Positions 10,901 through 38,423 of a stretch of 64,000 nt of DNA are shown piece by piece. Numbering within the stretch: position 1 is the first letter of the stretch; every line of letters begins with the position of its first letter. The notes beneath the pieces are model-generated. The model ran no database searches and was not told the origin of the DNA. It worked only from the letters and a program-made list of their open reading frames with translations. The DNA comes from Candidatus Sungiibacteriota bacterium. Lineage in GTDB: Bacteria > Patescibacteriota > Minisyncoccia > Sungbacterales > HO2-52-23. Location of the stretch: assembly GCA_016180435.1 (NCBI GenBank), contig JACPBG010000004.1, positions 59,660 to 123,659 of the forward strand, read 5' to 3'. A program made the translations under genes and the position numbers.

Positions 10901-10938
10901 CTCCTTTTCAATTAGAAATCAATTTTTGTGGGTTTTGG
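10901..10938. repeat. 38-bp inverted repeat, left copy (tccttttcaattagaaatcaatttttgtgggttttggg)
   Basis: perfect reverse complement at 12105-12142. Confidence 0.8.
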
Positions 10939-11040
10939 GGCGTTACTGACTTGCCGCTAGGTAGGCCGGAGTTACCCGAGTATGATGTATAAAATGATTT
11001 GCCACAAACAAATTTATTGTTACACCCCTGCGAACTAATT

Positions 11041-12048: not shown

Positions 12049-12104
12049 GTTCCGATTACAAGTCTGGTATATGTGCGGATTAGCTCCACTTTTGCGCTAG
12101 CAAA

Positions 12105-12142
12105 GCCCAAAACCCACAAAAATTGATTTCTAATTGAAAAGG
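12105..12142. repeat. 38-bp inverted repeat, right copy
   Basis: reverse complement of 10901-10938. Confidence 0.8.
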
Positions 12143-12194
12143 AAATTCCGCGCGCCCACCTTCTCCGCTAAAGGCGGGTTGCGGGTTTTTGGAG

Positions 12195-12298
12195 CGAGTC
12201 CCAGCATGATAATACTTTCCCGATTTTTGGGGGAGGTTGCCTCGCCGCTTCGCGGCTCGGCTCGGCGGCTTTGCGCAAGGCGCAAAGCCAAAAAATCC
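12195..12298. repeat. ~104-bp inverted repeat, left copy (upstream of recombinase start)
   Basis: reverse complement of 13775-13876 with few mismatches. Confidence 0.8.
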
Positions 12299-12361
12299 CA
12301 CGGCGCGGAAAACGAAAAGGAAGCGGATAAGGAATATCTAAAATCAATAATTTAAGAAATT

Positions 12362-13972
12362 ATGCTCAAACCAAAATATTTTCTCTACGCTCGCAAGAGC
12401 ACCGAGGATGATGACAAACAAGTAATGTCTATTGAAGCACAGCTTTTTGAATTGCGTGAATTTGCCAAAAGAGAAAATATTGAAATTCTTGAAGAATTTA
12501 CCGAGGCGAAAAGCGCAAAGACGCCGGGACGAGAAGTATTTAATTTAATGATGGGAAAAATTGAAAAATTGGAGGGAGTTGGAATCCTCGCGTGGCACCC
12601 AGATCGTCTCGCTAGAAATTCTGTTGATGGTGGTAAAATCGTTTATTTTGTTGATACGCAAAAAATAATTTCTTTGCGCTTTCCGCAATTTTGGTTTGAG
12701 CCAACTCCGCAAGGGAAATTTATGTTGCAAGTGGCGTTCGGACAGAGCAAATATTTTTCTGACAACTTGGTGGAAAATGTAAAGCGCGGTATCCGCCAAA
12801 AACTCCGCCGTGGCGAGTGGTTGACGCTCGCACCCTTTGGCTATGTGAACAATCCGAAAACGAGACAAATTGAACCGCACCCTACCAAATCAAAAATTGT
12901 CGTGCGAGCGTTTGAGGAGTTTGCCAAAGGAACGCATACGCTCAAAAGTATGTCGGAGTTTTTGGCGGAGCTTGGCGTTGAAACAAAGAACCGAACGCCA
13001 CTTGCGAAATGCAGTATTCACCACTTACTTACCAATCGCGCCTATCTCGGTTTTGTCGCGCACCACGGCGAATATCACGAGGGCACATTTCCGCCAATTC
13101 TTTCCCTCGCAACCTTTGAAGCCGTGCAGGAAGTATTGAAAAGGAAAGCGAAACCTCGCAAATCCAAACAGAGGCACAATTTCCCTTTTACCGGACTACT
13201 CACCTGCGGAGAGTGCGGCTCGGCGATCACCGCGCAATTCGCGCACGGCAATGGCGGAACATATCGCTACTATCGGTGCACGCGGAAAAAGGGAAATTGC
13301 GCTCAAAGATATTTGCGAGAGGATTTACTCGTTTCGCAATTAAAAGCACGGCTTCAAAGCGTTGCGCTTTGCGATGAGTGGATAAAGAAAATGTTAGCGA
13401 AAGTAAATGAATGGGAAAAAGAAAAAGTCCACTCATCGCAAACATTCGTCCAAAATCTGGAAACCAAAAGAACGGCCACGCAAGAGAAACTGGATAAACT
13501 TGTCTCGGCGTATATTGACGGCGACATACCCAAAGAAAACTATTTGAAAAAGAAAGAGGAGTTATTGAAGCAAAAAGTTTCTTTTGCGTCCCAAAAATCG
13601 GATTTTGGACGAACGGGAAAGAATTGGATCGAACCCTTGCGGAGTTGGATTTTAGATATACAGAAAGCCGAAAAATTGTCGCAGAGCGACAATTTTGAGG
13701 ACATTAAGGCGTTTGTCCAAAAAGTTGGAACGAACCATCAACTTTTGGACAAATCCGCTTCATTTTCGTTTTCTGCGCCGTGGGATTATGCGGCTTTGCG
13801 TCTCGCGCAAAGCCGCCAAGCCGAGGGGCGAAGCGGCGAGGCAACCTCCCCCAAAAATCGGGAAAGTATTATCATGTCCCCTCGGGAAGAATTGAACTCC
13901 CATTTTCTCCTTAGGACGGAGACGCTCTGTCCGTTGAGCTACGAGGGGGTTTGGATATTCGCTAAAATATAG
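12362..13972 (+). CDS. large serine recombinase (resolvase/invertase catalytic domain + recombinase domain + zinc ribbon); annotated ORF reads through right repeat and tRNA-Arg so true stop may be as given or protein C-terminus is fortuitous read-through
   Basis: YARKSTEDDDKQ (catalytic Ser region), LAWHPDRLARN, VKRGIRQKLRRGEWLTLAPFGY, CGECGS...YRYYRC. Confidence 0.85.
   Translation: MLKPKYFLYARKSTEDDDKQVMSIEAQLFELREFAKRENIEILEEFTEAKSAKTPGREVFNLMMGKIEKLEGVGILAWHPDRLARNSVDGGKIVYFVDTQKIISLRFPQFWFEPTPQGKFMLQVAFGQSKYFSDNLVENVKRGIRQKLRRGEWLTLAPFGYVNNPKTRQIEPHPTKSKIVVRAFEEFAKGTHTLKSMSEFLAELGVETKNRTPLAKCSIHHLLTNRAYLGFVAHHGEYHEGTFPPILSLATFEAVQEVLKRKAKPRKSKQRHNFPFTGLLTCGECGSAITAQFAHGNGGTYRYYRCTRKKGNCAQRYLREDLLVSQLKARLQSVALCDEWIKKMLAKVNEWEKEKVHSSQTFVQNLETKRTATQEKLDKLVSAYIDGDIPKENYLKKKEELLKQKVSFASQKSDFGRTGKNWIEPLRSWILDIQKAEKLSQSDNFEDIKAFVQKVGTNHQLLDKSASFSFSAPWDYAALRLAQSRQAEGRSGEATSPKNRESIIMSPREELNSHFLLRTETLCPLSYEGVWIFAKI
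13775..13876. repeat. ~104-bp inverted repeat, right copy, lying inside 3' end of recombinase ORF and abutting tRNA-Arg(CCT) 3' end
   Basis: reverse complement of 12195-12298. Confidence 0.8.
13877..13948 (-). tRNA. tRNA-Arg (anticodon CCT); overlapped by 3' end of recombinase ORF
   Basis: cloverleaf by hand: acceptor CCCCTCG/CGAGGGG, D-arm GCTC..GAGC, anticodon loop GTCCTAA, T-loop TTCAATT; backbone very similar to tRNA-Arg(TCT) at 17102. Confidence 0.7.
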
Positions 13973-22684: not shown

Positions 22685-24145
22685 TTATTGAACGGGTTTG
22701 AATACTAATTGATTTTCGGAAACGCAAAGCAGCGTTTCTTTGCCATTGACGGTCGTATTCAGGACCACTTCGTGCCCCCAAAGCTGGCGAAGATACTGGA
22801 GCGTCTTCTCGGCATATTCTAACTGGAGGTCGCGGCCGTCATGGGCGTGCTTCAAATATAGCGTTCGCTCACTGTTATAATCGGCATCCTCAACTTTAAT
22901 GACCGGTATGGTTCCGGTGCCGACGTTTTGAATCAAAGTGTCTTTGATGCTCCGCCAGTTCTCCTCGTCGGCGACGCGGCTGATGACTTTGTCGTTGCCC
23001 CTGGTTTGATATTCAAACAGTTTGAGTTCGCGAACCAGGTCTTCAGTAAGGAATCGTCGAAGAAAAGATGTGTCCCGCTCAACTTCGCGCACCACAAATA
23101 TTTTATTCCTGCCCTGCATTGTTTTTATGTTCCAGTCGCTTCGTTCGCTAGCCGTACACAAATCATATTCCGGACCGAAACGGCCTTTATCCCACCGCTC
23201 TTCAATGTCTTCCCAGATTTTCATGCCAACATGATACGGATTTAGGCCGCCCGGAGTCGGACAGAGCACCTGCGTGTGGCGCACGATGAACTCCATATGT
23301 AGGTTTTGAGGCAGTTCTAGGGATTCAAGGATTCGTTTGTGCCAGAAGCTTGCCCAACCCTCGTTCATAATCTTGGTTTCCATCTGGGGAATGAAATACT
23401 GCGCTTGTTCGTGTACGATGGTCAAAAGGTCTTTTTCCCATTCCGCCAAGTGCGGGTTATGATCCCGCACAAAGAGAAGTATGTCTTCTTCCGGATAGGG
23501 CGGGACCTTTGTCAAGTCGGGTTCCACGTGTTCTACTCTCCGATGGATGGCGTGGTGCGGGTCATGCCTTGGCCTTGATTCATCGATTTTTCGTTCTTTC
23601 TGCTCTTTCTCGGTTTCTTTCTTGATGGAAAGATTCCGTCGGCATTGGAGCGATAGCGCGTGCGCCGCGTCAAGTACGCGCTCAACTTTTTCCAGTCCAA
23701 TGCTTGGATCCTCAATGTAGTGGCGCACGCGGTTGGCGTGAGCCTTGAATGTTTCAATAGTGTATTCCGTCTGGGTGGTTCTGAAAGTGAAGTTGTTCTT
23801 AAAAAAGTCGTTGTGCGCGTATACATGGGCGATGGTGAGAACCTGCAAGGCCAGACTGTTATCGCGCATGAGATAGGCGATGGAGGGATTGGAATTGATC
23901 ACCATCTCGTAGGGCAGGCCGCTGAGACCGTAGTCGTAAAGGGTTTTGAGTTTCTCGAACCCCTTGCCGTAAGACCAGTGGGGATAGTGGGAGGGCATGC
24001 CGGAATAGACCATATAAGAGAGCATCTGTTCATAGTCGCAGACCTCGAATTCCTGGGAATAGGGGTCAAGACCGAATTTTTGCACCAGTTCAACGATACG
24101 CTGGTTCCACTCCTGGAGATCTTCGGTTGTCCATTCTCTACTCAT
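22685..24145 (-). CDS. SpoVR/YcgB-family protein
   Basis: N-terminal similarity pattern to YcgB: ...SYMVYSGMPSHYPHWSYGKGFEKL...PYEMVINSNPSIAYLMRDNSLALQVLTIAHVYAHNDFFKNN. Confidence 0.8.
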   Translation of the reverse strand: MSREWTTEDLQEWNQRIVELVQKFGLDPYSQEFEVCDYEQMLSYMVYSGMPSHYPHWSYGKGFEKLKTLYDYGLSGLPYEMVINSNPSIAYLMRDNSLALQVLTIAHVYAHNDFFKNNFTFRTTQTEYTIETFKAHANRVRHYIEDPSIGLEKVERVLDAAHALSLQCRRNLSIKKETEKEQKERKIDESRPRHDPHHAIHRRVEHVEPDLTKVPPYPEEDILLFVRDHNPHLAEWEKDLLTIVHEQAQYFIPQMETKIMNEGWASFWHKRILESLELPQNLHMEFIVRHTQVLCPTPGGLNPYHVGMKIWEDIEERWDKGRFGPEYDLCTASERSDWNIKTMQGRNKIFVVREVERDTSFLRRFLTEDLVRELKLFEYQTRGNDKVISRVADEENWRSIKDTLIQNVGTGTIPVIKVEDADYNSERTLYLKHAHDGRDLQLEYAEKTLQYLRQLWGHEVVLNTTVNGKETLLCVSENQLVFKPVQ

Positions 24146-25346
24146 AATTCACCTCGTTTTTAATGTTTGCGCGGTCTTTGGCAAGAAAGGTCTTGAAGGC
24201 GGACCAGATATCCTCTTTGCGCTGGATTTGCACCGTGAGGAAGTTGGGCTCCTGGATCTGCGAGAAATACTGAATCATGCTGCTGCCGTAGTAGCCCGCG
24301 CCCAAGGGCTTGATTTCGCCGTAGCCAAACAGATTGGATATTTTGGCGAGTTCCCGCGCGGAATTTAGCGCGGCGGTATTGTCGGATTCGAAATTGTCGC
24401 CGTCGGAACAGTGAAAGGCGTAAACGTTCCAGAGAGCGGGATGATATCGTTCATTGATGACCTCCAGGGCCTTGTTGTAGCCGGATGAGATAAAGGTTCC
24501 GCCGGATTCGCCCTTGTGGAAAAACTCTTCCTCGGTCACTTCGCGGGCTTCGGTGTGATGGGCGATGAACACGATCTCGACGTTCTGATAGCGCGTGCGC
24601 AGGAATTGGTACAGTAAAAAGAAGAAACTGCGCGCTAGATACTTTTTCATTGTATCCATGGAGCCGGAAGTATCCATGATGGCCATAACTACGGCGTTGG
24701 ATTCGCGCCGCATCTCTTTGACAACATGGTGGTAGCGCAGATCATCCTCGTGAAAAGGAAAGCGCTCGCCGTGAAGATTCGCGGCACCGGAGCGATGTGC
24801 GGATTTTTTGCGTCGTACTCGGGCACGGGCAGTGCGTTTTTTGTCCAAGCGCACGCGGATGCCTTTTTTTCGGAATCCTTTTTGGCGGAGATGGTCTACC
24901 GTCACGATTTCGCGTAAGTGCTTGCGTTCCAGATCCGGCAGTTCCAGGTCTTCGAACATCACTTCAATCAACTCATCGAGGCTGACCTCGGTCTCGTAGT
25001 AATCAACGCCGGCTTGGTCTCCGGCTTGCTGGCCCTGAGCGCCTTTTTTGCCTTGGCCAATGGTTTGTCCGGGCTGCAGGTCACCGTCCCCGCCTTGTCC
25101 CACGCCGGGCGCGTTCTCTCCGTAAACGAAACGGTATTCTTTTACACCTCGAATCGGCACTTTGATCACGCGGTTTTTGTCTTTGCCGATAATGGATTCT
25201 TCGGCGATGATGTCGGCGATGTTGTTACGAATCGCCTCGCGTACTTTCTGGCGGTGGCGCTGGCGATCCCCGGCCGATCGGTCGCTGCGCTGTCCGGAGG
25301 AAGGGTGATATGGCCGAAATATAGTATCCATCCGATAAACCTCCAA
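24138..25346 (-). CDS. YeaH/YhbH-family protein (DUF444, vWA-like)
   Basis: DTSGSMD...YQNVEIVFIAHHTEAREVTEEEFFHKGESGGTFISSGY...WNVYAFHCSDGDN closely parallels E. coli YeaH core. Confidence 0.8.
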   Translation of the reverse strand: MEVYRMDTIFRPYHPSSGQRSDRSAGDRQRHRQKVREAIRNNIADIIAEESIIGKDKNRVIKVPIRGVKEYRFVYGENAPGVGQGGDGDLQPGQTIGQGKKGAQGQQAGDQAGVDYYETEVSLDELIEVMFEDLELPDLERKHLREIVTVDHLRQKGFRKKGIRVRLDKKRTARARVRRKKSAHRSGAANLHGERFPFHEDDLRYHHVVKEMRRESNAVVMAIMDTSGSMDTMKKYLARSFFFLLYQFLRTRYQNVEIVFIAHHTEAREVTEEEFFHKGESGGTFISSGYNKALEVINERYHPALWNVYAFHCSDGDNFESDNTAALNSARELAKISNLFGYGEIKPLGAGYYGSSMIQYFSQIQEPNFLTVQIQRKEDIWSAFKTFLAKDRANIKNEVNYE

Positions 25347-25435
25347 TTGTAAAAGGCCTGTTTCTGTATTCGTAGTAGTATCATAATCGGCAAATAAAGT
25401 CCACGGATAAAAAAAGACACCCTGGCCGGGTGCCG

Positions 25436-27427
25436 TTATTTAAAAATTCGTCTGGCGTAGCTTAACAGGTTCTGCCAGCAACACTCCCGGTATCCTCTAT
25501 TCTGCAATAGTTCTTTCTTTATTTTGTCTAGGTTCTGCTTGGCTTTGTTGGGGTCAATCCCTTTGTCTTTCTCTTGATCCAGTGAATTCCAACATACTGC
25601 ACGCCTCACTATATCGTGATATTCGCTTATGATTTGCTTGGTCACCGCTTCTTCGAGCGGCAGATGGCTATCAAAATCATACGGCGGATCTCCCGGCAGG
25701 TTAGAATCCACACATTTTCTGAAATCATCGGCAGCTACTCCAATCACCGCGATTTGTTCCTCAATCTTTTCAAGAAAGTCCCGATTTGGATCTATGCACG
25801 TCACCTTGTTTTCGGCGTCCCGGATTTCAACTTTTTGTTTTTTTAAAAGGGCTTTCGTGTGAACCGCATAATCGTTGAAATACGTTTTTTGCCGCTCGGT
25901 GAATGCGGAGGATCCGACATGGCCGCGTACCAAATCTTCAAAGGCGCGATCTTGATACCAATCCCCCTCCAGCGGCGCGTGATCATATTCTCCCGATGAA
26001 TTCTTATCAATGGGGACCCACTTTTTTATCCGCGCCAAAGAGTCGCTTTCAAGGTTTTCAAAATTGGCTTCACGAATCGTCCTGATAAATTGGTTGATGC
26101 CTATGCAATTGTTCTGTTGCCCGGCCAACGCCATCAGATTGCCACCTTGGCGCATAGTCAGGCCGCGCGTTCCGTCTTTAGGCCTTTTATCACAGAGTTC
26201 TCGAAAACTATGTTTGACGAGGAATTTTCTATCGTCAGAAATCATGGCGCCGCCGCCGTAAAAAAGCGCCGCCTCGGCATTTTCGAGCTTCAGCTTATAT
26301 GGATAGTTATCCGTGTCAAGACGAGATGCGGTTATTACCTGACAGGCGGCCTCCTCTACCCACGGGACAAAGTGAAAACTGCGTCCCTCACTCATTGATT
26401 CTTTGCGCTGAATCTTAAGTTCCGCAACCGGATCCATAACCATAGGAAATGTTACGGAAACCACTCGATCAATGAGCGCGTCCTCTTTTGGAAACGCCTC
26501 TTTGATCGTTTTATTACTAATGCTTACAACCGCTATGTCCGGCCACCAGTCGGTTTGATCCCGGCCCTTGAACCAGCCGTCGCTGACCATCCGGCTTAAC
26601 CTGCCGCAAAATTCTAGGTTTTGTGCGGGAAAGTCAACAAAGAAAAGCCCACCGTTGGCCAAATCAATTACTCGGTACCAATCCTCCGGAATTTTTGAAA
26701 CCCTGCCTTCCTTGTCAAATTCCGGTTCAGTCAACCTCCCCTCGATCTGCAACATCCCGATACCTGCCCCCAGGCGGTATTCAGATGATTTTACCGGCAT
26801 ATTTTCCCATTTTCCGCCAAATTCATTTTGAAAACGCTCTTCGCATCCTCGACACAGCCGTCCTCGAAAACGAGACAGGCGAGAAGCTATATTTTCATGG
26901 CATAACACCTTTTGAATATCATCCCGCGGGTGTCCTATTTTTTTCCGCAGTGTACGCGGAATGGCGTTTAACGGATGCTCGTGGTGCGGACATTCCTCAA
27001 GGTAAAAAAAGCTTTCTTCTTCCATTTTGTCCGCGATGAGTTTCAGCCACGTTGTCTTTCCTACCCCGGTTTTGCCGGTGACCTCGAGTATTCTCCGCTC
27101 CATGGCTCCGCCGGATGCTGCTTGTCTGAAGAATTCGCCTGTTTCCGCCAAATAGGGATCAATGCCGACAAGTTCATTTTTGAACAAAGGAAAACGCATA
27201 TACTGCGGCGGTTGATTGTGAAACAGATTTTTCTCACGCGGGGCCTTGAGCTCCGATAGGATTTCCGGCCCCTCCCCGTTTATAGTCGAGGAAATCGCTT
27301 TCCATACTTTGCTGTATGCGCGATCAAGCAGTTCGGGTTTTTCCTGGGCGCACCTTAAAAGGTCTCCAATTGTTTTGATTTCGCTTGACATTTTGTCAGC
27401 TCCTTTTCCGATTCTGATTTTATTCAA
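25436..27427 (-). CDS. PrkA-like paralog (divergent PrkA-family AAA/serine-kinase-like protein)
   Basis: Walker A VTGKTGVGKTTWL, CP..H..PL, FGGKWENMP, FLEKIEEQIAVIGVAADDFRKCV all parallel motifs in the adjacent canonical PrkA. Confidence 0.7.
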   Translation of the reverse strand: MNKIRIGKGADKMSSEIKTIGDLLRCAQEKPELLDRAYSKVWKAISSTINGEGPEILSELKAPREKNLFHNQPPQYMRFPLFKNELVGIDPYLAETGEFFRQAASGGAMERRILEVTGKTGVGKTTWLKLIADKMEEESFFYLEECPHHEHPLNAIPRTLRKKIGHPRDDIQKVLCHENIASRLSRFRGRLCRGCEERFQNEFGGKWENMPVKSSEYRLGAGIGMLQIEGRLTEPEFDKEGRVSKIPEDWYRVIDLANGGLFFVDFPAQNLEFCGRLSRMVSDGWFKGRDQTDWWPDIAVVSISNKTIKEAFPKEDALIDRVVSVTFPMVMDPVAELKIQRKESMSEGRSFHFVPWVEEAACQVITASRLDTDNYPYKLKLENAEAALFYGGGAMISDDRKFLVKHSFRELCDKRPKDGTRGLTMRQGGNLMALAGQQNNCIGINQFIRTIREANFENLESDSLARIKKWVPIDKNSSGEYDHAPLEGDWYQDRAFEDLVRGHVGSSAFTERQKTYFNDYAVHTKALLKKQKVEIRDAENKVTCIDPNRDFLEKIEEQIAVIGVAADDFRKCVDSNLPGDPPYDFDSHLPLEEAVTKQIISEYHDIVRRAVCWNSLDQEKDKGIDPNKAKQNLDKIKKELLQNRGYRECCWQNLLSYARRIFK

Positions 27428-27558
27428 AAGTTAACGTGCTGGGTTAGATATACGACATAATTATATAAAATACAAGGGCGTCTCGTACCAAATAAAATTC
27501 CCGTCACGTAAACGTAACGGGCTACTAAGTTCTAAGATCTAAGTTCTTGGTGCTTGTC

Positions 27559-29493
27559 TTAATCTTTCCACAGGTTATTGGCCGCGTATTTGAGAATCAC
27601 GTCCACGCAGCTCGGGCAGTATCCATGCTCAAGGAGATTTTTGGTCATCATGTCGTATTTTTCCGTTTGCTCCGTGTCGCGCATGCGCGACTTGGTGATA
27701 ACCCGGCTTAGGTCGCGCACCGAAGTGATGAGTTTTTTCTCAATGGCCTCTTTGAGTGGCTCGTAACTGCGGAAGTCAATCTTTTCTTCGCGCCGCTTGG
27801 CTGCCCATAGATAGGAGATCACTTCCTGGCGGAATCCGTCGGCGGCCGAGCCGATGATGGCGATTTGCTCCTCGATTGATTTCATGAATCCTTCGTCGGG
27901 CGCCAACTCTTCTTTGGTGTTGCGATCCTTTACTTTGCTCTTGTTAACGTAGGCCTCGGCGTGATCCAGGTAATTCTGGAATAGCGCCTCCGCCTGCTCC
28001 TGGTAGGAATAGACAAACGCGCGGGTAATCTCCTTTTCCAGCACCTCAAGGTACTCCTTGTGCAGTGTATCCTGGAGAAACTCCAGATACTGCTTGCGCA
28101 TTTCGTCCGACAGATCAGCTTCCTTCACCATGTTGATCAGCGCTTCCCGAACATTGATGGGGTTGATGCAGTTGCCAGCGGTATTGTCGGTGAGCGCGTT
28201 ATCCAAGGCCTTCATTATGAAGCGCGTGGAAATACCGTTCATGCCTTCGCGTTTGGCTGCCTCGCGCAATTCCTGTACATCAACTTTCTTGGTGCGCCCC
28301 TTCTCAAGCACCTCTTCGCCGTTATACAGCTTCAGCTTGGTCATGAGGTCGCACTTGTTGGTGGGCTCCAGGCGCGACAGGATCGCGAACATGGAGGCGA
28401 CCTCCAGGGTGTGCGGCGCCACGTGGGCGCGGAAGTCGGAGTTGCGGATGATCTTCTGATAAATTTTAACTTCTTCGGAGAGGCGCAGGTTGTAGGACAC
28501 GCGAATCACCACAATGCGATCCAGAATCGCTTCGTTGGTGTGGTCTCCCTTGAATTTCTGCCACTCAGCCTCGTTGGAATGGGCCACGATAACTGTGTCC
28601 ACATAGACCAATCCGTGGCGGCCGGGCGCGGGCACAACCTTTTCTTGGGTCGCCGTGATCATGCAATGGAGATACTCGATTTCGTTTTTGAAAACCTCAA
28701 TGAACTCAACTATGCCGCGGTTGCCAACATTAAGCGCGCCATTTAGTTCCAGGACCCGCGGATCGCCCTCGGAATAGAGATCCAACTTCGAGATATCTTC
28801 GCTGCCGATCAGTACGGAAGTATCTTGGTTATTGGAATCCACAGGCGGAACCGATGCGGTACCGACCCGCGCGCGTTTGGAAAATTCCACGGTAGTAATT
28901 GGGAAGTCCTCATACTTGCCGCCGAACTCTTCTTTAAGCCGATAACGGCAGACCGGACACAGGTCGCCTTCAATGTGAATTCCCAGCATCTTTTCAAATT
29001 CTTTTCTCAAGTGGCGCGGTATCAAATGCAGGGGCTCTTCGAACATCGGACAGCCATCAATGGCGAAGATGGGATCGCTTGCCTCCAGGCCTCGATTCAG
29101 TTTTTCCGCAAGCGAGCTTTTGCCGGAACCCACCGGACCCATCAGATAGAGCACCTGGCGGCTTTCTTCACCTTTGAGCGATGCGGCGTGGAAGTAGCGC
29201 ACGATCTGGCTGACTATTTTCTCGATGCCGAAGAACTCATCGGTGAAGAAATCGTAAACCTTGATTGACTCGTCTTTGAAAAGACGTTTAACGTGGGGGT
29301 CGGTGCTTTCCTGAATGTCGCGGACGCCTGCTTTGACGATGATGTCATAAAAACGGGCGTGAGCCAGCTTGGCGATGGAGGGATCTTCCTTGATCTTGTC
29401 GAGGTAGCCGAGTAGCTTCCCGCTCCAATCATTTCGCCTATGGTGTGTTTCTCGGTCCTGTCTGATCAGTTCTCTGTATTCGTCTTCGCTCAT
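27559..29493 (-). CDS. prkA: PrkA-family serine protein kinase (YeaG-like)
   Basis: LYLMGPVGSGKSSLAEKL, FGGKYEDFP, NGALNVGNRGIVEFIEVFK, HCMITATQEK, IVAHSNEAEW, EEQIAIIGSAADGFRQEV. Confidence 0.85.
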   Translation of the reverse strand: MSEDEYRELIRQDRETHHRRNDWSGKLLGYLDKIKEDPSIAKLAHARFYDIIVKAGVRDIQESTDPHVKRLFKDESIKVYDFFTDEFFGIEKIVSQIVRYFHAASLKGEESRQVLYLMGPVGSGKSSLAEKLNRGLEASDPIFAIDGCPMFEEPLHLIPRHLRKEFEKMLGIHIEGDLCPVCRYRLKEEFGGKYEDFPITTVEFSKRARVGTASVPPVDSNNQDTSVLIGSEDISKLDLYSEGDPRVLELNGALNVGNRGIVEFIEVFKNEIEYLHCMITATQEKVVPAPGRHGLVYVDTVIVAHSNEAEWQKFKGDHTNEAILDRIVVIRVSYNLRLSEEVKIYQKIIRNSDFRAHVAPHTLEVASMFAILSRLEPTNKCDLMTKLKLYNGEEVLEKGRTKKVDVQELREAAKREGMNGISTRFIMKALDNALTDNTAGNCINPINVREALINMVKEADLSDEMRKQYLEFLQDTLHKEYLEVLEKEITRAFVYSYQEQAEALFQNYLDHAEAYVNKSKVKDRNTKEELAPDEGFMKSIEEQIAIIGSAADGFRQEVISYLWAAKRREEKIDFRSYEPLKEAIEKKLITSVRDLSRVITKSRMRDTEQTEKYDMMTKNLLEHGYCPSCVDVILKYAANNLWKD

Positions 29494-29929: not shown

Positions 29930-29962
29930 GCGGATAAAAAATCGGGCGAGGCCCGATTAAAT
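29930..29962 (-). terminator. rho-independent terminator downstream of Pup-like locus (AATCGGGCctcGCCCGATT + T-run on minus strand)
   Basis: hairpin followed by TTTTTTATCC on coding strand. Confidence 0.6.
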
Positions 29963-31674
29963 TAACTCATATTTATTTCATCTTCATTTTCCGGATGTGT
30001 ATCGGATATCGCCGGTCTGAATTTTTTGGCGGCGCGATTTACTTGCGCCAGCGCTTTTCTGTCGCGGGCGGATATTTTGTAACGCTCCGGGTCGAGGTTT
30101 TTGATATATAGGATTTTGGCGGATCTCTTGCCTGCATTAAATACAAAAGTAAACTCTTCCCAAACAGAGTCAACCAGGCATTTTTTATCGAGCTCGCGGG
30201 AAAAAATTATCCGGAGTATTTCTTCGCGCCAGTTAGCGCGCGTGCGTTCCGGCGGATTTTGCGTGGCCCACCTGACAAGATTTTCCGGAAATAATTTTTT
30301 AATAAGGCCGGCGCGAAGATACTGGCCGTAGGGACTTTGGGCGGTGTCCATGAATGCGTACTCGGATATGAACTCAAGAATATCTCGCAAAACATCCTGG
30401 TTGGAAGATGTGGGGATTTTTCCAACCGGCCGTTCTTCGCCGCGCGGCAGGATAGCTTCCGGATCAAACCCTCGGCTTTTCAGATACGGCATGATAAAAT
30501 AATGCAAAATCGCGGCCCAATCCAGGAATTGCGCAAGATACGGGAGGTCCCAGTGGGCGATCGCATCAATTATGTTTTCCCAGAGATTAAGGGCAAGTTT
30601 CCGTTCCGGGCTGAAGGATTGGCGTCCCGGCCCCGCAAAAAATTCCTGCGCCTGTTTTATGTAGAAGCGCTGGAAATCAAGCGCGTTCCAGCGTAAACCC
30701 TCTTCCAGAAGCGAAACCGGATTTTTTGATCCGGGGTCGGCGTTAAAAAAAAGCGAGGCCTCGAATAAATCCATCGGATAAATGTTCGGCGGGATCTTTA
30801 GAAATTTCTCTTCGGCCATGGTCAGAATAATGTCCAGCGTTGCATATTTCAAAAACAATTGCCATGCGGACATCGTGGAATTTCCTGACACATCATGGTG
30901 GCGTCTCCATCTCGTTTTGTCTGCGTATTGAGAATCTTTTTTTGAGAAGAAACTGGGTTTGTCTTCGGCCTTCCTGTTATTTTTCATGACCTCGGCGCGT
31001 TGGGAGAGGACAAACTGCAGGGTGTTGTCCGTTGCATTGATTTTTATCCAGCCGTTTCCAATAAGGCACCAGCGCGATATTAAAAACGGTATAATTAATT
31101 CGAAAAAATCACTGCGTTTGGAAAAGACCGATTTTTTTACCAAATAATTGGCATGCGAGCCCCAGCTGTTAACATCTAAATCCACCATCGGATACAATTC
31201 CACGTCGTAACAACAATTTCGGTTGGTCTTATAAAGTTTGAAATCCAAACCGGTTTTTCTTTTCAGGCGCCGCATCATCTGCGTCATAATCTGGAGCCCC
31301 GCGCTCTCAAAAAGCGCAAGTTCCAGGGCGCCCAGGCACTCCGGAGTGGAATATTCCACATGTTCGTTATCTATATAGATGATTCCTTGATTAGGAAGAA
31401 CGGCTTTGGGACGCCGGTTTGAGAAGCTGTCGTCATCCGGGTTGATTAGCCGGCGGCGGTCTTGTTTTGAAACCGCAGCGCGCAGAATCAATGGCTGATT
31501 TTCCGATTCCTTGACAAGAAGAAAAGGCTCCGGCGAACTTAATTCATTTTCGGCGCCCATGATGCGATGGATTATTCTTTCGGTTTTTTGCGAACCCATG
31601 CGTGTACCGTATTGAATTGGCAAGTTCCTGAATAAAGCATCGCAAGATATACGAAATAAAGCAAGCGGCGGCAT
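29962..31674 (-). CDS. PafA/Dop-family (Pup ligase/deamidase family) homolog 2; start may be internal Met (~31599)
   Basis: RIMGAENE (cf. RIMGIETE), IYIDNEHVEYSTPEC (cf. LYLDVGSHPEYATAEC), WGSHANYLV (GCHENYL), FVLSQRAE (LSQRA), RRHHDVSGNSTMS (RRLHVIVGDSNMS). Confidence 0.7.
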   Translation of the reverse strand: MPPLALFRISCDALFRNLPIQYGTRMGSQKTERIIHRIMGAENELSSPEPFLLVKESENQPLILRAAVSKQDRRRLINPDDDSFSNRRPKAVLPNQGIIYIDNEHVEYSTPECLGALELALFESAGLQIMTQMMRRLKRKTGLDFKLYKTNRNCCYDVELYPMVDLDVNSWGSHANYLVKKSVFSKRSDFFELIIPFLISRWCLIGNGWIKINATDNTLQFVLSQRAEVMKNNRKAEDKPSFFSKKDSQYADKTRWRRHHDVSGNSTMSAWQLFLKYATLDIILTMAEEKFLKIPPNIYPMDLFEASLFFNADPGSKNPVSLLEEGLRWNALDFQRFYIKQAQEFFAGPGRQSFSPERKLALNLWENIIDAIAHWDLPYLAQFLDWAAILHYFIMPYLKSRGFDPEAILPRGEERPVGKIPTSSNQDVLRDILEFISEYAFMDTAQSPYGQYLRAGLIKKLFPENLVRWATQNPPERTRANWREEILRIIFSRELDKKCLVDSVWEEFTFVFNAGKRSAKILYIKNLDPERYKISARDRKALAQVNRAAKKFRPAISDTHPENEDEINMS

Positions 31675-31710
31675 GAAAAAACGGGGAATATTCCCCGTAG
31701 AAATAAGTAT

Positions 31711-31911
31711 TTATTCGCCTTTTTCCTGTATGTGGCGGCGCCTTTTGCGTCGGGCCTTTTTCTTCAGATCCTTCTTGTTTTTCTTGAGTACCTCGTTGAT
31801 CCTTTTCTTTATTTCCTCCGCTTCCTCAACTGTGGCTCCAGGATTATTTATCACACCCCGCTCGGGGATATTGAATTCCGGGCGCTCTATTTTCTCGCGT
31901 TTTACCGGCAT
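31711..31911 (-). CDS. candidate Pup/UBact-like small protein modifier (66 aa, ends -QEKGE)
   Basis: located between two PafA/Dop homologs; helical segment ATVEEAEEIKKRINEVLKKN resembles Pup Mpa-binding helix TEETDDLLDEIDDVLEENAE; C-terminal Gly-Glu like Pup -GGQ/-GGE. Confidence 0.5.
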   Translation of the reverse strand: MPVKREKIERPEFNIPERGVINNPGATVEEAEEIKKRINEVLKKNKKDLKKKARRKRRRHIQEKGE

Positions 31912-31974
31912 AAAGACCTAATTTGCGCATATTTATCGGTTCTCATAACATTTTACGCCATATCCGAAAAATCA

Positions 31975-33567
31975 TCAAACGCAGAATTTCACAACTTTAA
32001 CCGGAATCATTCTTTCGGCATCGGCCAGAAATTTTTCAAGCGGCAGAGCCAGAAGCTGATCGGCAACTCCTTGGTTCCACATAAGAGTCGGGTCTTGGAA
32101 ATAAAGTTCTGCGCGGACAGTTCTTTTGGCCGGATTTTTAAATGAAATCATGTGCCAATAATTAGAGTCCGCAATATTTTTTTTGAAGCGGCGCGCCACA
32201 TTCATAATCCAGCGCGAGCGGGTTAGGGGCGGGGCGCCCACGGCGCCGTTGATATCCTGGTCGTGCGTAATGCGTCCGTTTTTGGCGAAAATTTCGCGCT
32301 GGAACACGCTTTCCGGATCATTATCATGGTATTCGTAGTCAAGCCCCATGGCTAAATCGCTTTTCCAGCCCCCTCGCTCTTGGGAGACGGCGTTTTGTAT
32401 GAATAGGAATTTGGTCGGCCAATCCAAAACGCCATAAAGCGATTCGTAGTCGCGCCGGAAAAGTTTTTTAAGAATATCGGCCAGGCGCGCTAAAACATCA
32501 TAAAGCACTTCATTTTCCGGATGATATTCATCCAGATAATTTCCGAAAAGTTCGTAATAATCCCAAAGGCAATCAAGCGCGAGGCGCGTTCTTTTTTTAT
32601 TTCGCAAAGTAACGCGGTGCGTCATGTCAAGCGAGCGCGAAATTGCCCAAAATTCTTTAACAGGATCCATGAGGGCGAAGCGGTTGTCCAGTACCTCATC
32701 CTCAAGCATCATAAAAAGTATGGATGTTAAGCCAATTTTGAGATACTCCGGAATTTCCAGCATATTGGAATCGCCGGGAATAACATGTATTCGGCGGAAG
32801 CGTCCGGCGTCGGCATACGGAGCGTCGCGGGTGTTATATATTCCCCGATCCTCCATGGTGTCCAGTCCCCACTCGCAGGTGAAAAAATCAGCGCGCTGGG
32901 AAATCTGGTAAGGCGCCTCCGGGGTGCAGTTGTCTGCCCCGATTTTGCCGGCTCCGATAAGAGGCGTGCGCAACACCAGCCACGGCACCGTATGCGATAT
33001 TAATTTTTCTAAAGGAATCCGGCGCAAAACCGTATAATTTTCGTGGCAAGCAAAAGAGTTGCGGGCGCCGGAGCCAGGAATATAATCTTGCGGTTTTCCG
33101 GCAACGTTATTTCTAATTACGGCGTATTTTTTTCTGTGAACCTCCTCGTGTTTTTTTCGCAAGAAATCAATTATGCGGTAACAGGCGCGATTCCAGGTAA
33201 TGAGCATTTTCGGATCAGAGCAGATCGGAGTTGAAATCTCGACATGCGCGCCATCAAGATATAGCCGGGCGCCGTTGGCAAGCAATATATTTTCACGCGA
33301 GCACCAGGAGTTCTCCTCAAAAAAATCATGATTTTTAGCGTCAGCATTTTTGGAAAGATCGCTAAACAACTCCGCTCGTATTTGCGGGCTTAATCTCTCC
33401 TGCGGATTCCACGGGATCATGCATGCATCCGGCATCCATTCGGGTTGGATGGATTGAATGAATTTGGCGTTGGCCGATATAGGGCCTGCGCGGGATGACA
33501 GATCAATGATCCCGAATTCGGTTTCAATCCCGCACATCTTGGGAATGGCGCGTGATTCTTTTGGCAT
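31975..33567 (-). CDS. PafA/Dop-family homolog 1 (clear member)
   Basis: MCGIETEFGI, NGARLYLDGAHVEISTP, FACHENY, ISQRADF, YNTRDAPYADAGRFRRIHVIPGDSNM. Confidence 0.85.
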   Translation of the reverse strand: MPKESRAIPKMCGIETEFGIIDLSSRAGPISANAKFIQSIQPEWMPDACMIPWNPQERLSPQIRAELFSDLSKNADAKNHDFFEENSWCSRENILLANGARLYLDGAHVEISTPICSDPKMLITWNRACYRIIDFLRKKHEEVHRKKYAVIRNNVAGKPQDYIPGSGARNSFACHENYTVLRRIPLEKLISHTVPWLVLRTPLIGAGKIGADNCTPEAPYQISQRADFFTCEWGLDTMEDRGIYNTRDAPYADAGRFRRIHVIPGDSNMLEIPEYLKIGLTSILFMMLEDEVLDNRFALMDPVKEFWAISRSLDMTHRVTLRNKKRTRLALDCLWDYYELFGNYLDEYHPENEVLYDVLARLADILKKLFRRDYESLYGVLDWPTKFLFIQNAVSQERGGWKSDLAMGLDYEYHDNDPESVFQREIFAKNGRITHDQDINGAVGAPPLTRSRWIMNVARRFKKNIADSNYWHMISFKNPAKRTVRAELYFQDPTLMWNQGVADQLLALPLEKFLADAERMIPVKVVKFCV

Positions 33568-33649
33568 ATTCCGCCCCTTTTAAAAAGCTGATCCCAGCGT
33601 AGCAGGTTTTGGGCCAAAATAAAATACCCCCGCGCGCTGCGTAGGGGCG

Positions 33650-33856
33650 TTATTTTGGATGGTTGCGATTTTCGCGGATGTCCTGGAATCTTCGGAGCAT
33701 CGCTTTTTGGGCGGATTCCAAAATATCAGACCGCAGGATTTTGAGCGATTGGTCAGTTCCGTGTTCAAGCCGTTTTAGTGCGGCCAGCTTGGCATTGCGG
33801 ACCGTTTCCTCGATCATGGCGCCGGTTATTACGTCAATTCCCTGTGACCTTTGCAT
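33650..33856 (-). CDS. small hypothetical helical protein overlapping AAA gene 3' end
   Basis: ORF only. Confidence 0.25.
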   Translation of the reverse strand: MQRSQGIDVITGAMIEETVRNAKLAALKRLEHGTDQSLKILRSDILESAQKAMLRRFQDIRENRNHPK

Positions 33857-34994
33857 TTCCGTTGTCCGCTTTCAGTTCATCCATGTCAAATGGCAGCTCG
33901 GGCAGGAGGTATTTTCTAAAAATATCTTTGGTGCCGCTGGTGCCTGGGGCCTTGATTTCAAGTATAAGATCAATGCGGCCCGGCCGTATCACGGCGCGGT
34001 CAAAAATGTCGCGGCGGTTTGAAGCAAAAATAACCAAGACATTATCGAGTTTTTCCAGGCCGTCAAGTTCTCCCAGAATTTGCGATACCAGCGGGTCAAA
34101 AAGCTGGGAATTGATTCCGGCCGAGTCGCGCGGGCGCAAAATGGACTCCGCTTCGTCAATAAATATTACGCACGATTCGCGCCGCGCTTCGGCAAAAACC
34201 ATGCGAACTTTTTCTTCTCCGGTGCCGATCAGCGGCCTAAGAAACTCCGCGCTGTTAAAATAAAGGAATCGTCGTCCGAGTTCTTTGGCCAGCGCTTTGG
34301 CCAGCATGCTTTTTCCGCAGCCCGGGGGGCCGATTAGCAGCACGCCCTTGGTGGGACGTAAATTTAACTTTCGGAAGGCGTCCGGGAAGCGTTGCGGATA
34401 TTCTATGGCCGCGCGCAGTTCCTCGATTTCTTTATCCAGGCCGCCGATATCCGAAAAACTTACATCCAGCGCATAGTCCTTGGCAAATGAGGGCGGTGTC
34501 GGCTCGGGCAGTTTTTCAAAAAGAAAACCAGACGCTGAATCCATCAGGAGCTTATCGCCCGGTTTCAATTCTTGTGACCGAAGGGACGAGGCCAGAACGC
34601 CAACCGGCTCTCGGGATTGATGTGCAACCAACGCGCGACCGTTATCCAGTTTTTCTTTAAATGTAACGGCAACGCCCGAACGGATGGGTGCGCGTACTTT
34701 GCCGATAATGTTCATGGCCGAATTTAAAATTACCACATCTCCGGGTTCCAGCGCGTCAGCGCCCCGTGCATTATAGAATGGATTACCTACCCTTATGGGT
34801 ACTGGTCGGCCGTCGGCAAAAACATCTACGGTTTTGTCGTCATTATGTTGCCCTAAAATTCCATAATAAAAAGGCGGTTTTGAAATTTTTTCCGTGTACG
34901 CCAGGGCGTTTTTAAGCGCTTGCTCAAGTTCGGAATTCCTTCTTTCCAGAAGAACAATCTCGCGCAGCGTGTGGGCAGATTTATTACGGGCCAT
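33834..34994 (-). CDS. short proteasomal-ATPase-like AAA+ protein (coiled coil + single OB-like + AAA), Mpa/ARC/PAN-like but lacking C-terminal HbYX/GQYL tail
   Basis: Walker A GPPGCGKSMLAK, Walker B VIFIDEAES, second region RPGRIDLILE; N-term coiled coil LREIVLLERRNSELEQALKNA. Confidence 0.75.
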   Translation of the reverse strand: MARNKSAHTLREIVLLERRNSELEQALKNALAYTEKISKPPFYYGILGQHNDDKTVDVFADGRPVPIRVGNPFYNARGADALEPGDVVILNSAMNIIGKVRAPIRSGVAVTFKEKLDNGRALVAHQSREPVGVLASSLRSQELKPGDKLLMDSASGFLFEKLPEPTPPSFAKDYALDVSFSDIGGLDKEIEELRAAIEYPQRFPDAFRKLNLRPTKGVLLIGPPGCGKSMLAKALAKELGRRFLYFNSAEFLRPLIGTGEEKVRMVFAEARRESCVIFIDEAESILRPRDSAGINSQLFDPLVSQILGELDGLEKLDNVLVIFASNRRDIFDRAVIRPGRIDLILEIKAPGTSGTKDIFRKYLLPELPFDMDELKADNGNAKVTGN

Positions 34995-35092
34995 TTGTCG
35001 ATTTTTCCTGGAAAAGTTCTACTTTATTCTTATCATCCCGCGTCAAATAGCGCAAATTAAAAATCGGCCCGGCGGGGTCTTAGTTTTTGAAA

Positions 35093-35164
35093 TGGGGATG
35101 GCAGGGATCGAACCTGCGACGGCCGTCTTATAAGGGCGGTGCTCTACCACTGAGCTACATCCCC
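35093..35164 (-). tRNA. tRNA with anticodon TAT (UAU; Ile-type), acceptor GGGGATG/CATCCCC
   Basis: anticodon loop CTTATAA read by hand from cloverleaf; one C:A mismatch in anticodon stem. Confidence 0.6.
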
Positions 35165-35246
35165 ACAAAAAAGCTTGCCCTCCTAAATTTTGCAATACAA
35201 AATTTTGGAGGGTGAAGAAGGACAAGCCAAGCCACATGCTCATAAA

Positions 35247-37082
35247 TTATTCCTTCACCAACTTTTCAAATTCATCCCGCTCAATTGTTTCTCTTTCCAC
35301 AAGTATTTTGGCGATTTCATCAAGTTTCGCGCGGCGGCGCGTTAAAATTTCCCGCGCGCGTTTCTCCGCACCGGTAATCAATTTTTTGATTTCCTCGTCA
35401 ATAATGCGCGCGGTTTCTTCCGAATAATTGCGTTCGGTGGTGAGTTCGCGTCCCAAAAACACCAACTCTTCTTTCTCGCCAAGCGTCATGGGGCCGACTT
35501 TATCCGACATCCCGAAGCGCATGACAAGCGATCGCGCCAGGTCGCTGGCTTTTTTCAGGTCATCGTGCGGTCCGGTGGTGATGTCCGCAAAGACCAATTT
35601 TTCCGCAACAAACCCGCCCAGAGCCACTGCCAATTCATTCAGCAGATAACTTCTGGAATGCAGATGCCGGTCTTCGGTCGGAAGTTTCAGGGTATAACCG
35701 GCGGCGCGGCCTCGCGACACTATGGATACTTTATGGATCGGATCAACGCCCTTAAGGGATGCGGCCACCAGAGCGTGTCCTCCTTCGTGGTAAGCCGAGA
35801 TTTTTTTCTCTTCGGGCGACAAAATATGGCTTTTTCTTTCCGGCCCCAACATAACTTTTTCAATGGAATTAATAAGATCCATTTGTGATACTTTTTTCTG
35901 ATTTTCGCGCGCAGCCAGTATCGCCGCTTCATTCACCAGATTGGCCAAATCCGCGCCGGAAAATCCCGGGGTGCGTTCGGCAATTCTCCGCAGATTTACA
36001 TCATTGGCCAGGGGTTTATTAGCCGAATGAATATGCAAAATCGCTTCGCGGTCATTAATGTCCGGCAAATCCAGCGTAACCCTACGGTCAAACCTGCCGG
36101 GACGTAAAATCGCGGGGTCCAAGACGTCCGGACGATTCGTGGCCGCCATAACTATGACGCGGTCATCCGTTTCCATGCCATCCATTTCTACAAGAATCTG
36201 ATTCAGAGTTTGTTCGCGCTCATCATGACCTCCGCCAAGTCCGGCTCCGCGGATTCTTCCTATGGCATCCAATTCGTCAATAAAAATTATGGAGGGTGCG
36301 GCTTTTTTGGCAAGCCGGAATAAATCTCGGGTGCGTGAAGCCCCGACTCCCACGAACATTTCAATAAATTCCGAGGCGGACATGTGGAAAAACGGAACCC
36401 CGGCTTCTCCCGATACTGCCTTGGCAAGCAGTGTTTTTCCGGATCCCGGGGGACCCATCAAAAGCACGCCTTTCGGTATTTTGGCGCCGATGTCAAGGAA
36501 TTTCTTGGGGCTTTTCAGAAAATCCACTATTTCTTTTAGTTCCTCTTTGGCTTCTTTTACTCCGGCCACGTCTTTAAACATCACCCGTTCCTTTTTATTG
36601 TCCGGTGAGATCATGCGCGCCTTGGATTGGCCGAAGGTAAAGGCCTGCATGGCTCCGCGCTGGACCTGGCGCGCCGTAATCCAGAAAAAAAGAGCGATGA
36701 GAAGAACCGGCCCCAGGATCGGCAAAATAAATCCGAGAAAGAAATTCCATACCCCCTGGTTTTTGATCCCGATTTTTACCTCTTTTAATTTTTCTGGATC
36801 CACCCCGTAGTTTCTTAGGGTTTCGGTAAGTTCGGCCTGCGGCTCTTTTTCCGCGCGAAGTTCCTCACCCGAACGAGTGCGGATTTCAAGAGTAGAGTCC
36901 ACGATAGTGATCTCCGCAATTTCGCCCGCATTAACTTGGGCCGCAAGATCGGACAGCGGAATTTCTTTCACCTCACGGAGCGCTCCCGCCAACATAGAAT
37001 AAAATACTGAAATAGACATCAGTATAACCAGCGCCCACAAAAAATTTTTAGATAGATTTTTCATCCCGCACATAACCTGCAC
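35247..37082 (-). CDS. ftsH: ATP-dependent zinc metalloprotease FtsH
   Basis: N-term 2 TM, Walker [33 protein letters not shown] zinc motif. Confidence 0.9.
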
Positions 37083-37407: not shown

Positions 37408-38181
37408 TTGGAGGTACACATGAATGCGCCGAAAGAACTAAAAACTAAAGCGATTTATTTGAGAAAACGTGGTTTGAGTTATAACGAAATCCGACATCAC
37501 GTGCCGGTTGCAAAAAGCACATTAAGCTTGTGGCTTAAAAGCACCCCCCTCTCAAAAGAGCATAAACGTAGATTATATACCAAAAATATTCTTCTTCTTT
37601 CACGCGGACCAAATAGTCAACACGAAAGAAGAAAAAGGGAGATTGAAGCAATCATAGCACGGGCACATAGTGAGATTCATTTGCCGATTCAGCCGGAAAC
37701 ATTCCAGCTTATGGGCGCGGCGTTATATTGGGCAGAGGGAAGCAAGACGAAGAAATTTGAGTTTACAAATTCAGACCCGCATTTTATTCTTTTTATGGTT
37801 AGATGGGCAGAAAAAATTTTTGGTCTTTCCAGTAAAACCTTTAGTGCTACGTTAAATATCTATCCGCAACAAAACGAGGTACGGCTCAAAAAATTCTGGT
37901 CGGAACTGACAAACATTCCATTACATAATTTCGGAAAAAGTTTTGTTAAGCCGCTAAGCAAGAATTACAAGAAAAATAATCTTTACTACGGAACGATAAA
38001 AGTTTATGTGCCGCGAGGTACTGATATGCGTCATCGCGTTTTTGGATGGATTGAAGCCGCCTTGAAAAATATAGAACCGAAAGTAAATTCTATAACCAAG
38101 CGCTGGATATCTTTAAAAAAAACGCCGCGTCCTGTTAATTTATCCCCCCATAACTCAATTGGTAGAGTACCCGCCTCTTAA
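37408..38181 (+). CDS. HTH-containing protein with LAGLIDADG-like motif (homing-endonuclease-like); 3' end overlaps tRNA-Lys
   Basis: N-term HTH LRKRGLSYNEIRHHVPVAKSTLSLWLK; LMGAALYWAEGSK resembles single LAGLIDADG motif. Confidence 0.4.
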   Translation: MEVHMNAPKELKTKAIYLRKRGLSYNEIRHHVPVAKSTLSLWLKSTPLSKEHKRRLYTKNILLLSRGPNSQHERRKREIEAIIARAHSEIHLPIQPETFQLMGAALYWAEGSKTKKFEFTNSDPHFILFMVRWAEKIFGLSSKTFSATLNIYPQQNEVRLKKFWSELTNIPLHNFGKSFVKPLSKNYKKNNLYYGTIKVYVPRGTDMRHRVFGWIEAALKNIEPKVNSITKRWISLKKTPRPVNLSPHNSIGRVPAS

Positions 38182-38216
38182 GCGGAATGTTCCAGGTTCG
38201 AGCCCTGGTGGGGGGA
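38144..38216 (+). tRNA. tRNA-Lys (anticodon CTT)
   Basis: acceptor CCCCCCA/TGGGGGG, anticodon loop CTCTTAA, T-loop TTCGAGC. Confidence 0.8.
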
Positions 38217-38423
38217 AAATGCGGAGCATTTTCCGAGTTCACTTCCTGCTCTCCGTTCATTCATGAACGCAGAAATTGAAGTTAACTCCGGGCTGTGCCT
38301 AGGAGGCACGGAAATGATTGCCATTATTTTCCCCACTTATTGAACGATGCGCGAACTTATAAAAAAATGTGCTTGACTCAAAAAATGCGTATAATATTGA
38401 TATAAATCAAGTATTATAAAAGC

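Follow-up and report, generated by a model that had tools for sequence, protein, structure and literature searches.

Pupylation is held to be essentially actinobacterial. The tag, Pup, is regarded as uniformly acidic, and its charge and helices are read by the enzymes PafA and Dop and by the ATPase Mpa. Lehmann et al. reportedly found, in 2017, homologues of Pup and of the related tag UBact in several candidate phyla, including Parcubacteria. In corynebacteria and other actinobacteria that lack the proteasome, pup is located directly before pafA; the ATPase gene is kept, its product misses the carboxy-terminal interaction motif and the enzymes are more divergent (PMC3511204, a 2012 review). 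In actinobacteria, the loss of this docking motif accompanies the absence of proteasome genes (PMC3511204). The ATPase ARC has a non-degradative role, the disassembly of pupylated bacterioferritin (PMC12288473, a 2025 review). Here, we describe a locus found in a 64-kb stretch of DNA (contig JACPBG010000004.1; hereafter the window) from a tiny, uncultured bacterium of Candidatus Sungbacteria, which belong to the candidate phyla radiation (CPR, or Patescibacteria). The locus is a genuine Pup-ligase-family operon of the pupylation type and of the proteasome-less kind.

The architecture as such has been described before. An original prediction, made on the same DNA, presented the missing proteasome and docking motif as a surprise, but both are textbook for corynebacteria (PMC3511204, PMC12288473), and the window shows them in a CPR lineage. 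Three elements are new: a basic tag that is missed by the available models, a minimal ARC and a CPR-specific second enzyme.

Organization of the operon

The operon consists of four genes, all on the minus strand, in the order ATPase, Dop orthologue (H1), 66-residue tag and H2 paralogue. Coordinates refer to the window.

33650..34994, minus strand: Mpa/ARC-like AAA+ ATPase, 469 aa when intact, here split into 386-aa and 68-aa reading frames (Pfam and NCBIfam profiles)
31975..33567, minus strand: H1, Dop orthologue of the depupylase type, 530 aa, with Dop-loop (PF03136, Dop model, structure alignment)
31711..31911, minus strand: candidate conjugated tag, 66 aa, ending ...RRHIQEKGE (conservation, position, dN/dS, the ratio of nonsynonymous to synonymous substitution rates)
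29962..31599, minus strand: H2, second paralogue of the Pup-ligase family and presumed ligase, 545 aa (PF03136)

All five minus-strand open reading frames (ORFs) of the original prediction are present where it had placed them, and the motifs RPGRID, MCGIETEFGI, FACHENY, ISQRA, RRIHVIPGDSNM, RIMGAENE and LSQRAE, as well as the -KGE end, are found in the translations. The genes number four rather than five, because the 68-aa helical ORF, which had been counted as a separate gene, is the C-terminal AAA lid of the split ATPase. In the NCBI record, both enzymes are named PafA2 family protein, and the tag is annotated as hypothetical. The sequence of the window tag is identical to that of a hypothetical protein from a metagenome-assembled genome of Candidatus Sungbacteria, which places the organism in the CPR.

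The locus resembles arc-dop-pupE-pafA of C. glutamicum in gene order, in the position of the tag directly before the gene for the second enzyme and in having no prcBA. In both, the ATPase ends without the motif for interaction with the proteasome, Glu is the last encoded residue of the tag, and the enzymes are more divergent than those of proteasome-bearing species (PMC3511204, PMC12288473). In contrast to the C. glutamicum system, the window tag is basic (isoelectric point, pI, of ~10), carries a single Gly before the Glu and is unseen by Pup models. The ATPase, at 469 aa, is also far smaller, and its pore loop is non-aromatic; the second enzyme is a member of a paralogue family specific to CPR, and the host is a CPR bacterium instead of an actinobacterium. 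Compared with the mycobacterial mpa-dop-pup-prcB-prcA-pafA system, the enzyme family, the Dop-loop feature and the domain plan of the ATPase are the same, whereas prcBA and the GQYL motif are missing from the window, and the tag is basic and ends in Glu, not in Gln.

Among the loci fetched for comparison (L001 to L029), the Sungiibacteriota locus L009 (CP066690) shares with the window the phylum-level lineage, a nearby ftsH gene and the order ATPase, Dop-like, small tag and H2; the Dop proteins are 46% identical. The CPR loci with a canonical Pup differ from the window in tag, ATPase and number of ligase paralogues, as detailed in the sections that follow.

H1 and H2 enzymes

Both large ORFs had been placed in the PafA/Dop family, and profile searches agree. 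Against a PF03136 (Pup_ligase) cut-off of 25 bits, H1 (31975-33567) scores 302 bits and H2 (ORF 29962-31674) scores 188 bits; the glutamine synthetase (GS)/GCS2 families, the alternative, did not materialise in the profiles. H1 is matched better by the Dop model (258 bits) than by the PafA model (204 bits), and H2 is matched about equally by the two (129 and 126 bits). The NCBIfam equivalog cut-offs are 492 bits for Dop (TIGR03688) and 551 bits for PafA (TIGR03686). The former is reached by neither H1 nor H2 and the latter is not reached by H2, marking the two proteins as divergent members of the family and not as equivalogs.

Dop is separated from PafA by the Dop-loop (PMC8599861), defined here as 40-65 residues ahead of strand beta-2 with a conserved Trp. 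H1 aligns over its full length to the Dop structures 4B0R and 5LRT, loop and conserved Trp included, and spans the entire loop of A. cellulolyticus Dop with its Trp. On these alignments, H1 is assigned as a Dop orthologue. H2 has no Dop-loop; a spacer of ~50 residues occupies that place, and the motif is not present in it. The Mg-binding residues of Dop (E8, E10, Y92, E99, H155 and H241) and the catalytic Asp D94 have been described (PMC8599861), and all seven equivalents are kept in both H1 and H2, as evidenced by the alignment. The longest H2 ORF extends to 31674, but the start is most likely Met26 (31599), which yields a protein of 545 aa and matches the NCBI record.

In a neighbour-joining tree of the ligase homologues of the fetched loci, in which Nitrospira (L029) supplies the sole canonical PafA, the CPR proteins fall into three families: a Dop-like family, which includes H1, an H2 family and a third family. 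The canonical Dop and PafA comparison sequences cluster with the CPR Dop-like family, and the H2 family forms a separate, CPR-specific clade apart from the Nitrospira PafA. The third family is very divergent; it occurs in the canonical Pup loci L009, L024, L025 and L026 and, in contrast, is absent from the window locus. H2 is presumed to be the ligase of the system, an assignment made by elimination and position. Scans with an alignment of the H2 family identified one locus in GTDB genomes and seven in JGI metagenomes; such low numbers point either to a rare family or to overly strict search patterns.

Two observations on other loci concern these families. In L015, a contig labelled Saccharibacteria, two tandem H2-family paralogues (6020-9545) are found downstream of ftsH, and neither an ATPase gene nor a recognisable tag gene lies beside them. 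A conserved protein of ~520 residues is encoded beside the Pup-ligase paralogues in L009 (11733-13319), L024 (981-2546) and L025 (13240-14811). It has a hydrophobic N-terminus, belongs to no Pfam or NCBIfam family and is 57-62% identical between loci; no homologue was found among the three Pfam-less window ORFs compared with it.

A strongly basic 66-residue tag

The strongly basic tag, missed by the Pup and UBact models, is the one unusual feature of the locus and its only interesting part. The window tag has a net charge of +10 and a pI of 10.3. Its C-terminal half is rich in Lys and Arg, and the last 30 residues carry a net charge of +11. Five variants, 64-66 aa in length, were collected (the window tag, P0002, P0003, P0143 and P0144). 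They are as little as 44% identical, and across the family the net charge ranges from +7 to +10 at a pI of ~10. In contrast, CPR Pups have a net charge of -6 and a pI of ~4.7.

In all loci carrying this tag, the gene maps between the Dop-like and the H2 genes. The Gly-Glu end is invariant in 5/5 variants, which terminate in K-G-E, S-G-E or N-G-E, and an ERPxF motif at the N-terminus is likewise invariant. The dN/dS of the tag gene, 0.19-0.26, is like that of the adjoining Dop gene. The 66-aa ORF is a real gene under purifying selection. The prediction of a small Glu-terminated ORF between the two enzymes holds, as does the view that such a tag needs no deamidation, since it is encoded with its terminal Glu. 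The tag family is rare, because an exhaustive search of 1.84 billion representative proteins with a hidden Markov model (HMM) added two members only.

A textbook Pup, with the C-terminus ...FVRSYVQRGGE or ...GGQ, is encoded in relatives that have a Dop of 45-47% identity. In L009, the canonical Pup gene is flanked by the Dop-like and H2 genes; in L024, it follows the third paralogue directly, and the L022 fragment has a Pup gene ahead of an H2 gene. The L009 protein scores 65.7 bits with PF05639 and 52.6 bits with TIGR03687. The tags of these three loci are acidic and end in GGE or GGQ, unlike the window tag. The basic tags share with Pup the gene size (~64 aa) and the place between dop and the next pupylation gene. 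They lack the C-terminal Gly-Gly-Gln/Glu of Pup; the conserved part is Gly-Glu only. Profile comparison aligns the tag with helix 1 of Pup through the common motif I-[DN]-x-x-L-x-x-N, and our own Pup HMM gives the tags 1-8 bits. Most likely, judging mainly by synteny, the tag is a descendant of a canonical acidic Pup that turned strongly basic in this clade.

The tag had also been called UBact-like. UBact, known from Nitrospirae and other Gram-negative phyla, likewise is a short tag that ends in x-G-E after a basic C-terminal stretch, and its gene adjoins Dop/PafA homologues outside Actinobacteria. Unlike the window, the single Nitrospira locus examined carries prcB and prcA. An hhalign comparison of the tag with a UBact-like control sequence was not significant (P = 0.06). 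The same control sequence scores 60.8 bits with the UBact model NF033388, indicating that the model works, and neither the window tag nor its relatives match it. Membership of the tag in either Pup or UBact was rejected at the profile level, and the UBact-like label does not hold; what is left is a weak resemblance to helix 1 of Pup.

The presence of another Pup gene, of the canonical type, in the rest of the window was also rejected. No window ORF ends in GG[EQ], and the best match to the Pup HMM has an E-value of 6.

A short ATPase without docking motif

Three Pfam domains were detected in 33834-34994, all above threshold: PF00004 (AAA, 109 bits), PF16450 (48 bits) and PF17758 (30 bits). The latter two are OB domains, so the ATPase has two of these instead of the one OB-like segment that had been claimed. 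The best NCBIfam model is pup_AAA (TIGR03689), which gives 280 bits for the window fragment and 292 bits for the intact copy of L001; neither reaches the equivalog cut-off of 505 bits. The 386-aa ORF covers positions 12-397 of this model, and the 68-aa ORF (33650-33856) covers positions 436-487.

In the close relatives (loci L001-L008), the ATPase is encoded by a single gene of 469 codons. Protein and DNA alignments with these relatives revealed that the window is short of 65 bp at ~33847/33848, with 22 codons gone and the frame shifted. Exact-sequence look-up retrieved from 15 independent contigs an intact protein of 469 aa (P0146) that agrees exactly with the window on either side of the gap; the split form occurs on a single contig, the NCBI metagenome-assembled genome. 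Because the intact copy is found on 15 contigs and the split form on one, the split is peculiar to one record, where it reflects either a faulty assembly or a rare variant, and is no feature of the system. A programmed +1 frameshift at AAU-UGA-C was considered and ruled out, as the relatives reveal a 65-bp deletion and no slippery site, and the 15 contigs are intact.

The ATPase is composed of a short coiled coil, two OB domains, the AAA module and the lid, and has no C-terminal domain. The N-terminal helix is short, spanning ~40 residues. Walker A, Walker B, sensor 1 and the Arg fingers have all been preserved. In the window clade, the pore-1 loop has changed from K-[YF]-V-G to the non-aromatic P-L-[IL]-G (KYVG to PLIG in the window). 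As the original prediction stated, the ATPase does not carry a GQYL/HbYX tail; the C-termini of intact relatives read ...REERTRQK or ...RENRNHPK. Both the C-terminal domain and the docking motif are missing from all ATPases of the window clade and of its closest outgroup, L023, in which Dop is 60% identical; these ATPases are 469-476 aa long. In contrast, the Mpa proteins of other CPR loci are 582-678 aa long and end in GQYL or GHYL. Two of these, from L009 and L012, were scanned with TIGR03689, and both pass the cut-off (511 and 628 bits).

Proteasome genes were sought in the window, on which all statements about local 20S genes are based. The window has 52 non-overlapping ORFs of 90 aa or more; PF00227 was run against 49 of these and matched none, and phmmer searches with PrcA and PrcB of the Nitrospira locus L029 had no match among window ORFs of at least 60 aa. 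The same two queries found no match in the other fetched loci, L001-L028. The claim that the window holds no 20S genes and that its ATPase carries no docking tail is borne out by these searches and by the C-termini.

Proposed function and alternative explanations

On balance, the locus probably encodes a reduced, proteasome-independent pupylation-type system of the Sungbacteria lineage, made of an ARC-like ATPase, a Dop-type deconjugase, the 66-aa tag and a ligase-type paralogue. The mechanism proposed here is modelled on that of PafA and Dop. H2 would bind the C-terminal half of the tag and, with ATP, phosphorylate the side-chain carboxylate of the terminal Glu. It would then join this carboxylate to lysines of target proteins; a deamidation step would be unnecessary because the tag is made with Glu. 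The Dop orthologue H1 would take the tag off again and recycle it. Hexamers of the short ARC would recognise the tagged proteins. Since the ATPase has no 20S docking tail, ARC would most likely remodel or disassemble them, as it does with pupylated ferritin in Corynebacterium, and would not feed a proteasome.

Several findings weigh against this reading. In this particular record, the ATPase gene is frameshifted, and a pore loop without an aromatic residue makes the unfoldase power of the protein, as read from its sequence, uncertain. The Pup models PF05639 and TIGR03687 match neither the tag nor its four relatives at E-values up to 10, and the UBact model NF033388 matches none of the five (window tag, P0002, P0003, P0143 and P0144). 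The hhalign signal between tag and Pup is weak (probability of 6%, P-value of 0.006), and the HMM score between the two, 10 bits, is equalled by 3/2000 shuffles. A single Gly, not two, precedes the terminal Glu. The charge of the tag is opposite to that of Pup, yet neither enzyme exhibits a global charge shift between the basic-tag and acidic-tag clades, and global charge compensation in the enzymes was accordingly rejected. The search of the genome for 20S genes covered 64 kb only.

H2 raises further objections. In the tree, canonical Dop and PafA fall with the Dop-like family, which makes H2 a CPR-specific paralogue and not an orthologue of canonical PafA. In the H2 family, the otherwise invariant motifs HENY and GDxN have changed to H[AGS]NY (HANY in the window) and GNxN (GNxT in the window), and the Arg equivalent to R90 of Dop is missing in the window H2 as well as in 5/7 of the other aligned members. 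With these substitutions and the missing Arg, the ligase activity of H2 is not assured.

Of the alternatives, the one that survives best is a degradative system, in which the ARC-like ATPase unfolds tagged proteins and passes them to another protease. The obvious candidate is FtsH, the gene for which lies upstream of the operon beyond a tRNA-Ile (35092-35165), as had been described:

35247..37082, minus strand: ftsH, context gene

In the window, L009, L012, L015, L024, L025 and L026, no more than a few genes separate ftsH from the ATPase gene or the ligase genes. These seven loci differ in sequence, and the association persists although their Dop genes are only 36-47% identical; in addition, CPR genomes encode few ATP-dependent proteases. 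However, the genes in between vary (tRNA, purH, htrA and a homing-endonuclease-like ORF) and are in part unrelated, and in L024 ftsH is on the opposite strand. FtsH has an AAA module of its own, no site is known at which a separate unfoldase could dock to it, and the linkage is found equally in loci whose Mpa keeps GQYL. The linkage looks like an inherited neighbourhood and not like co-transcription. The hand-off to FtsH that had been suggested is therefore speculation: functionally it is possible but unsupported, and a degradative system of this kind seems unlikely.

It is somewhat more improbable that the 66-aa ORF is no tag at all but a small basic protein with another role, for instance one that regulates or inhibits the two enzymes or binds nucleic acids, in which case the enzymes would use another carboxylate substrate. 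Such a role would agree with the silence of the Pup and UBact models, with a C-terminal half that, being rich in Lys and Arg (net +11 in the final 30 residues), resembles nucleic-acid-binding tails, and with the invariant ERPxF motif, which has no counterpart in Pup. Against it stand the terminal Gly-Glu, invariant in 5/5 variants, and the position, length and orientation of the gene, which equal those of the Pup gene of L009. Moreover, both enzymes retain the Arg of the SQR motif, the presumed equivalent of PafA R201, which contacts the C-terminus of Pup (PMC8599861).

There is only a slim chance that the locus belongs to an ordinary Pup-proteasome system with prcBA located elsewhere in the genome. 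The 64 kb seen leave room for this, and five CPR loci whose Mpa keeps GQYL or GHYL (L009, L012, L024, L025 and L026) also have no 20S gene within 10 kb on either side, so that any 20S genes there must be unlinked. In the window clade, however, all intact ATPases are devoid of both the docking motif and the C-terminal domain, and such motif loss tracks the absence of the proteasome in actinobacteria (PMC3511204). The position of the tag directly before the gene for the second enzyme is, in turn, the arrangement of proteasome-less loci.

A decaying, non-functional remnant, to which the 65-bp frameshifting gap of this record would point, is very improbable, given that 15 other contigs carry the same ATPase unbroken, that the tag and Dop genes evolve under purifying selection and that the catalytic residues are preserved.

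Operon ends and other features of the window

Two terminator-like hairpins were identified on the minus strand.

29940..29958, minus strand: terminator-like hairpin and T-run, operon end
31681..31698, minus strand: terminator-like hairpin and T-run, directly 3' of the tag gene and before the H2 gene

The first agrees with the terminator that had been claimed for the end of the operon. The second could be an attenuator, which would leave the tag transcript in excess over the ligase transcript. Rfam and repeat scans of the locus returned nothing beyond tRNAs and chance repeats.

An anticodon of UAU is unusual in bacteria, in which AUA is normally read by a lysidine-modified CAU tRNA. The tRNA-Ile between ftsH and the ATPase gene (35092-35165, minus strand) has this UAU anticodon. 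Just beyond ftsH, a 257-aa ORF without Pfam match (37408-38181, plus strand) overlaps a tRNA-Lys (38143-38217). A similar ORF occupies the same place in L015 (4266-4940), and the window ORF looks like a gene of the homing-endonuclease type. In L012 and L026, an intein that contains a LAGLIDADG domain is inserted in ftsH itself.

Directly downstream of the operon, a cluster on the minus strand (22685-29493) comprises prkA, a divergent prkA paralogue, a DUF444 (yeaH-like) gene and spoVR. The second PrkA-like gene (25436-27427) scores only 75 bits with AAA_PrkA. The prkA-spoVR cluster is syntenic in L001-L003.

Three other regions of the window deserve mention. A valyl-tRNA synthetase-like ORF of 1035 aa (23-3130, plus strand) features an inserted histidine-phosphatase domain (PF00300, 160 bits, residues 571-751), located between the catalytic and the anticodon-binding parts. 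The region 5163-13972 has a low GC content (0.36-0.39) and encodes a Dam-type methyltransferase, several family-less ORFs, an EVE-domain protein and a large serine recombinase, which abuts a tRNA-Arg (13876-13948). This region is probably a mobile or defence island that has integrated here. Lastly, two paralogous ORFs on the minus strand, of 545 aa (58325-59962) and 452 aa (61373-62731), have the C-terminal motif RS[FY]PSLY[FY]L.F..SVW in common and flank a 471-aa ORF without family. The 545-aa member has no Pfam match.

Implications

Tentatively, and with somewhat less than even confidence, we suggest that the Pup-type tags of bacteria include, beside Pup and UBact, a third family, of which the 66-aa protein is the founding member. 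The protein would descend from Pup with its charge inverted (+7 to +10 against -6), would be conjugated by a CPR-specific ligase paralogue and would be read by a minimal ARC that has lost the docking tail, the C-terminal domain and the aromatic pore loop. If this is true, the targets could meet a non-degradative fate, such as association with nucleic acids, ribosomes or acidic partners, in bacteria with very small genomes. As Pup and UBact profiles miss the tag, systems of this type are annotated as ligases without a tag. The combination of a basic tag with retained catalytic residues would represent a natural experiment in the rewiring of tag recognition, and in pupylation without a proteasome in a minimal-genome symbiont.

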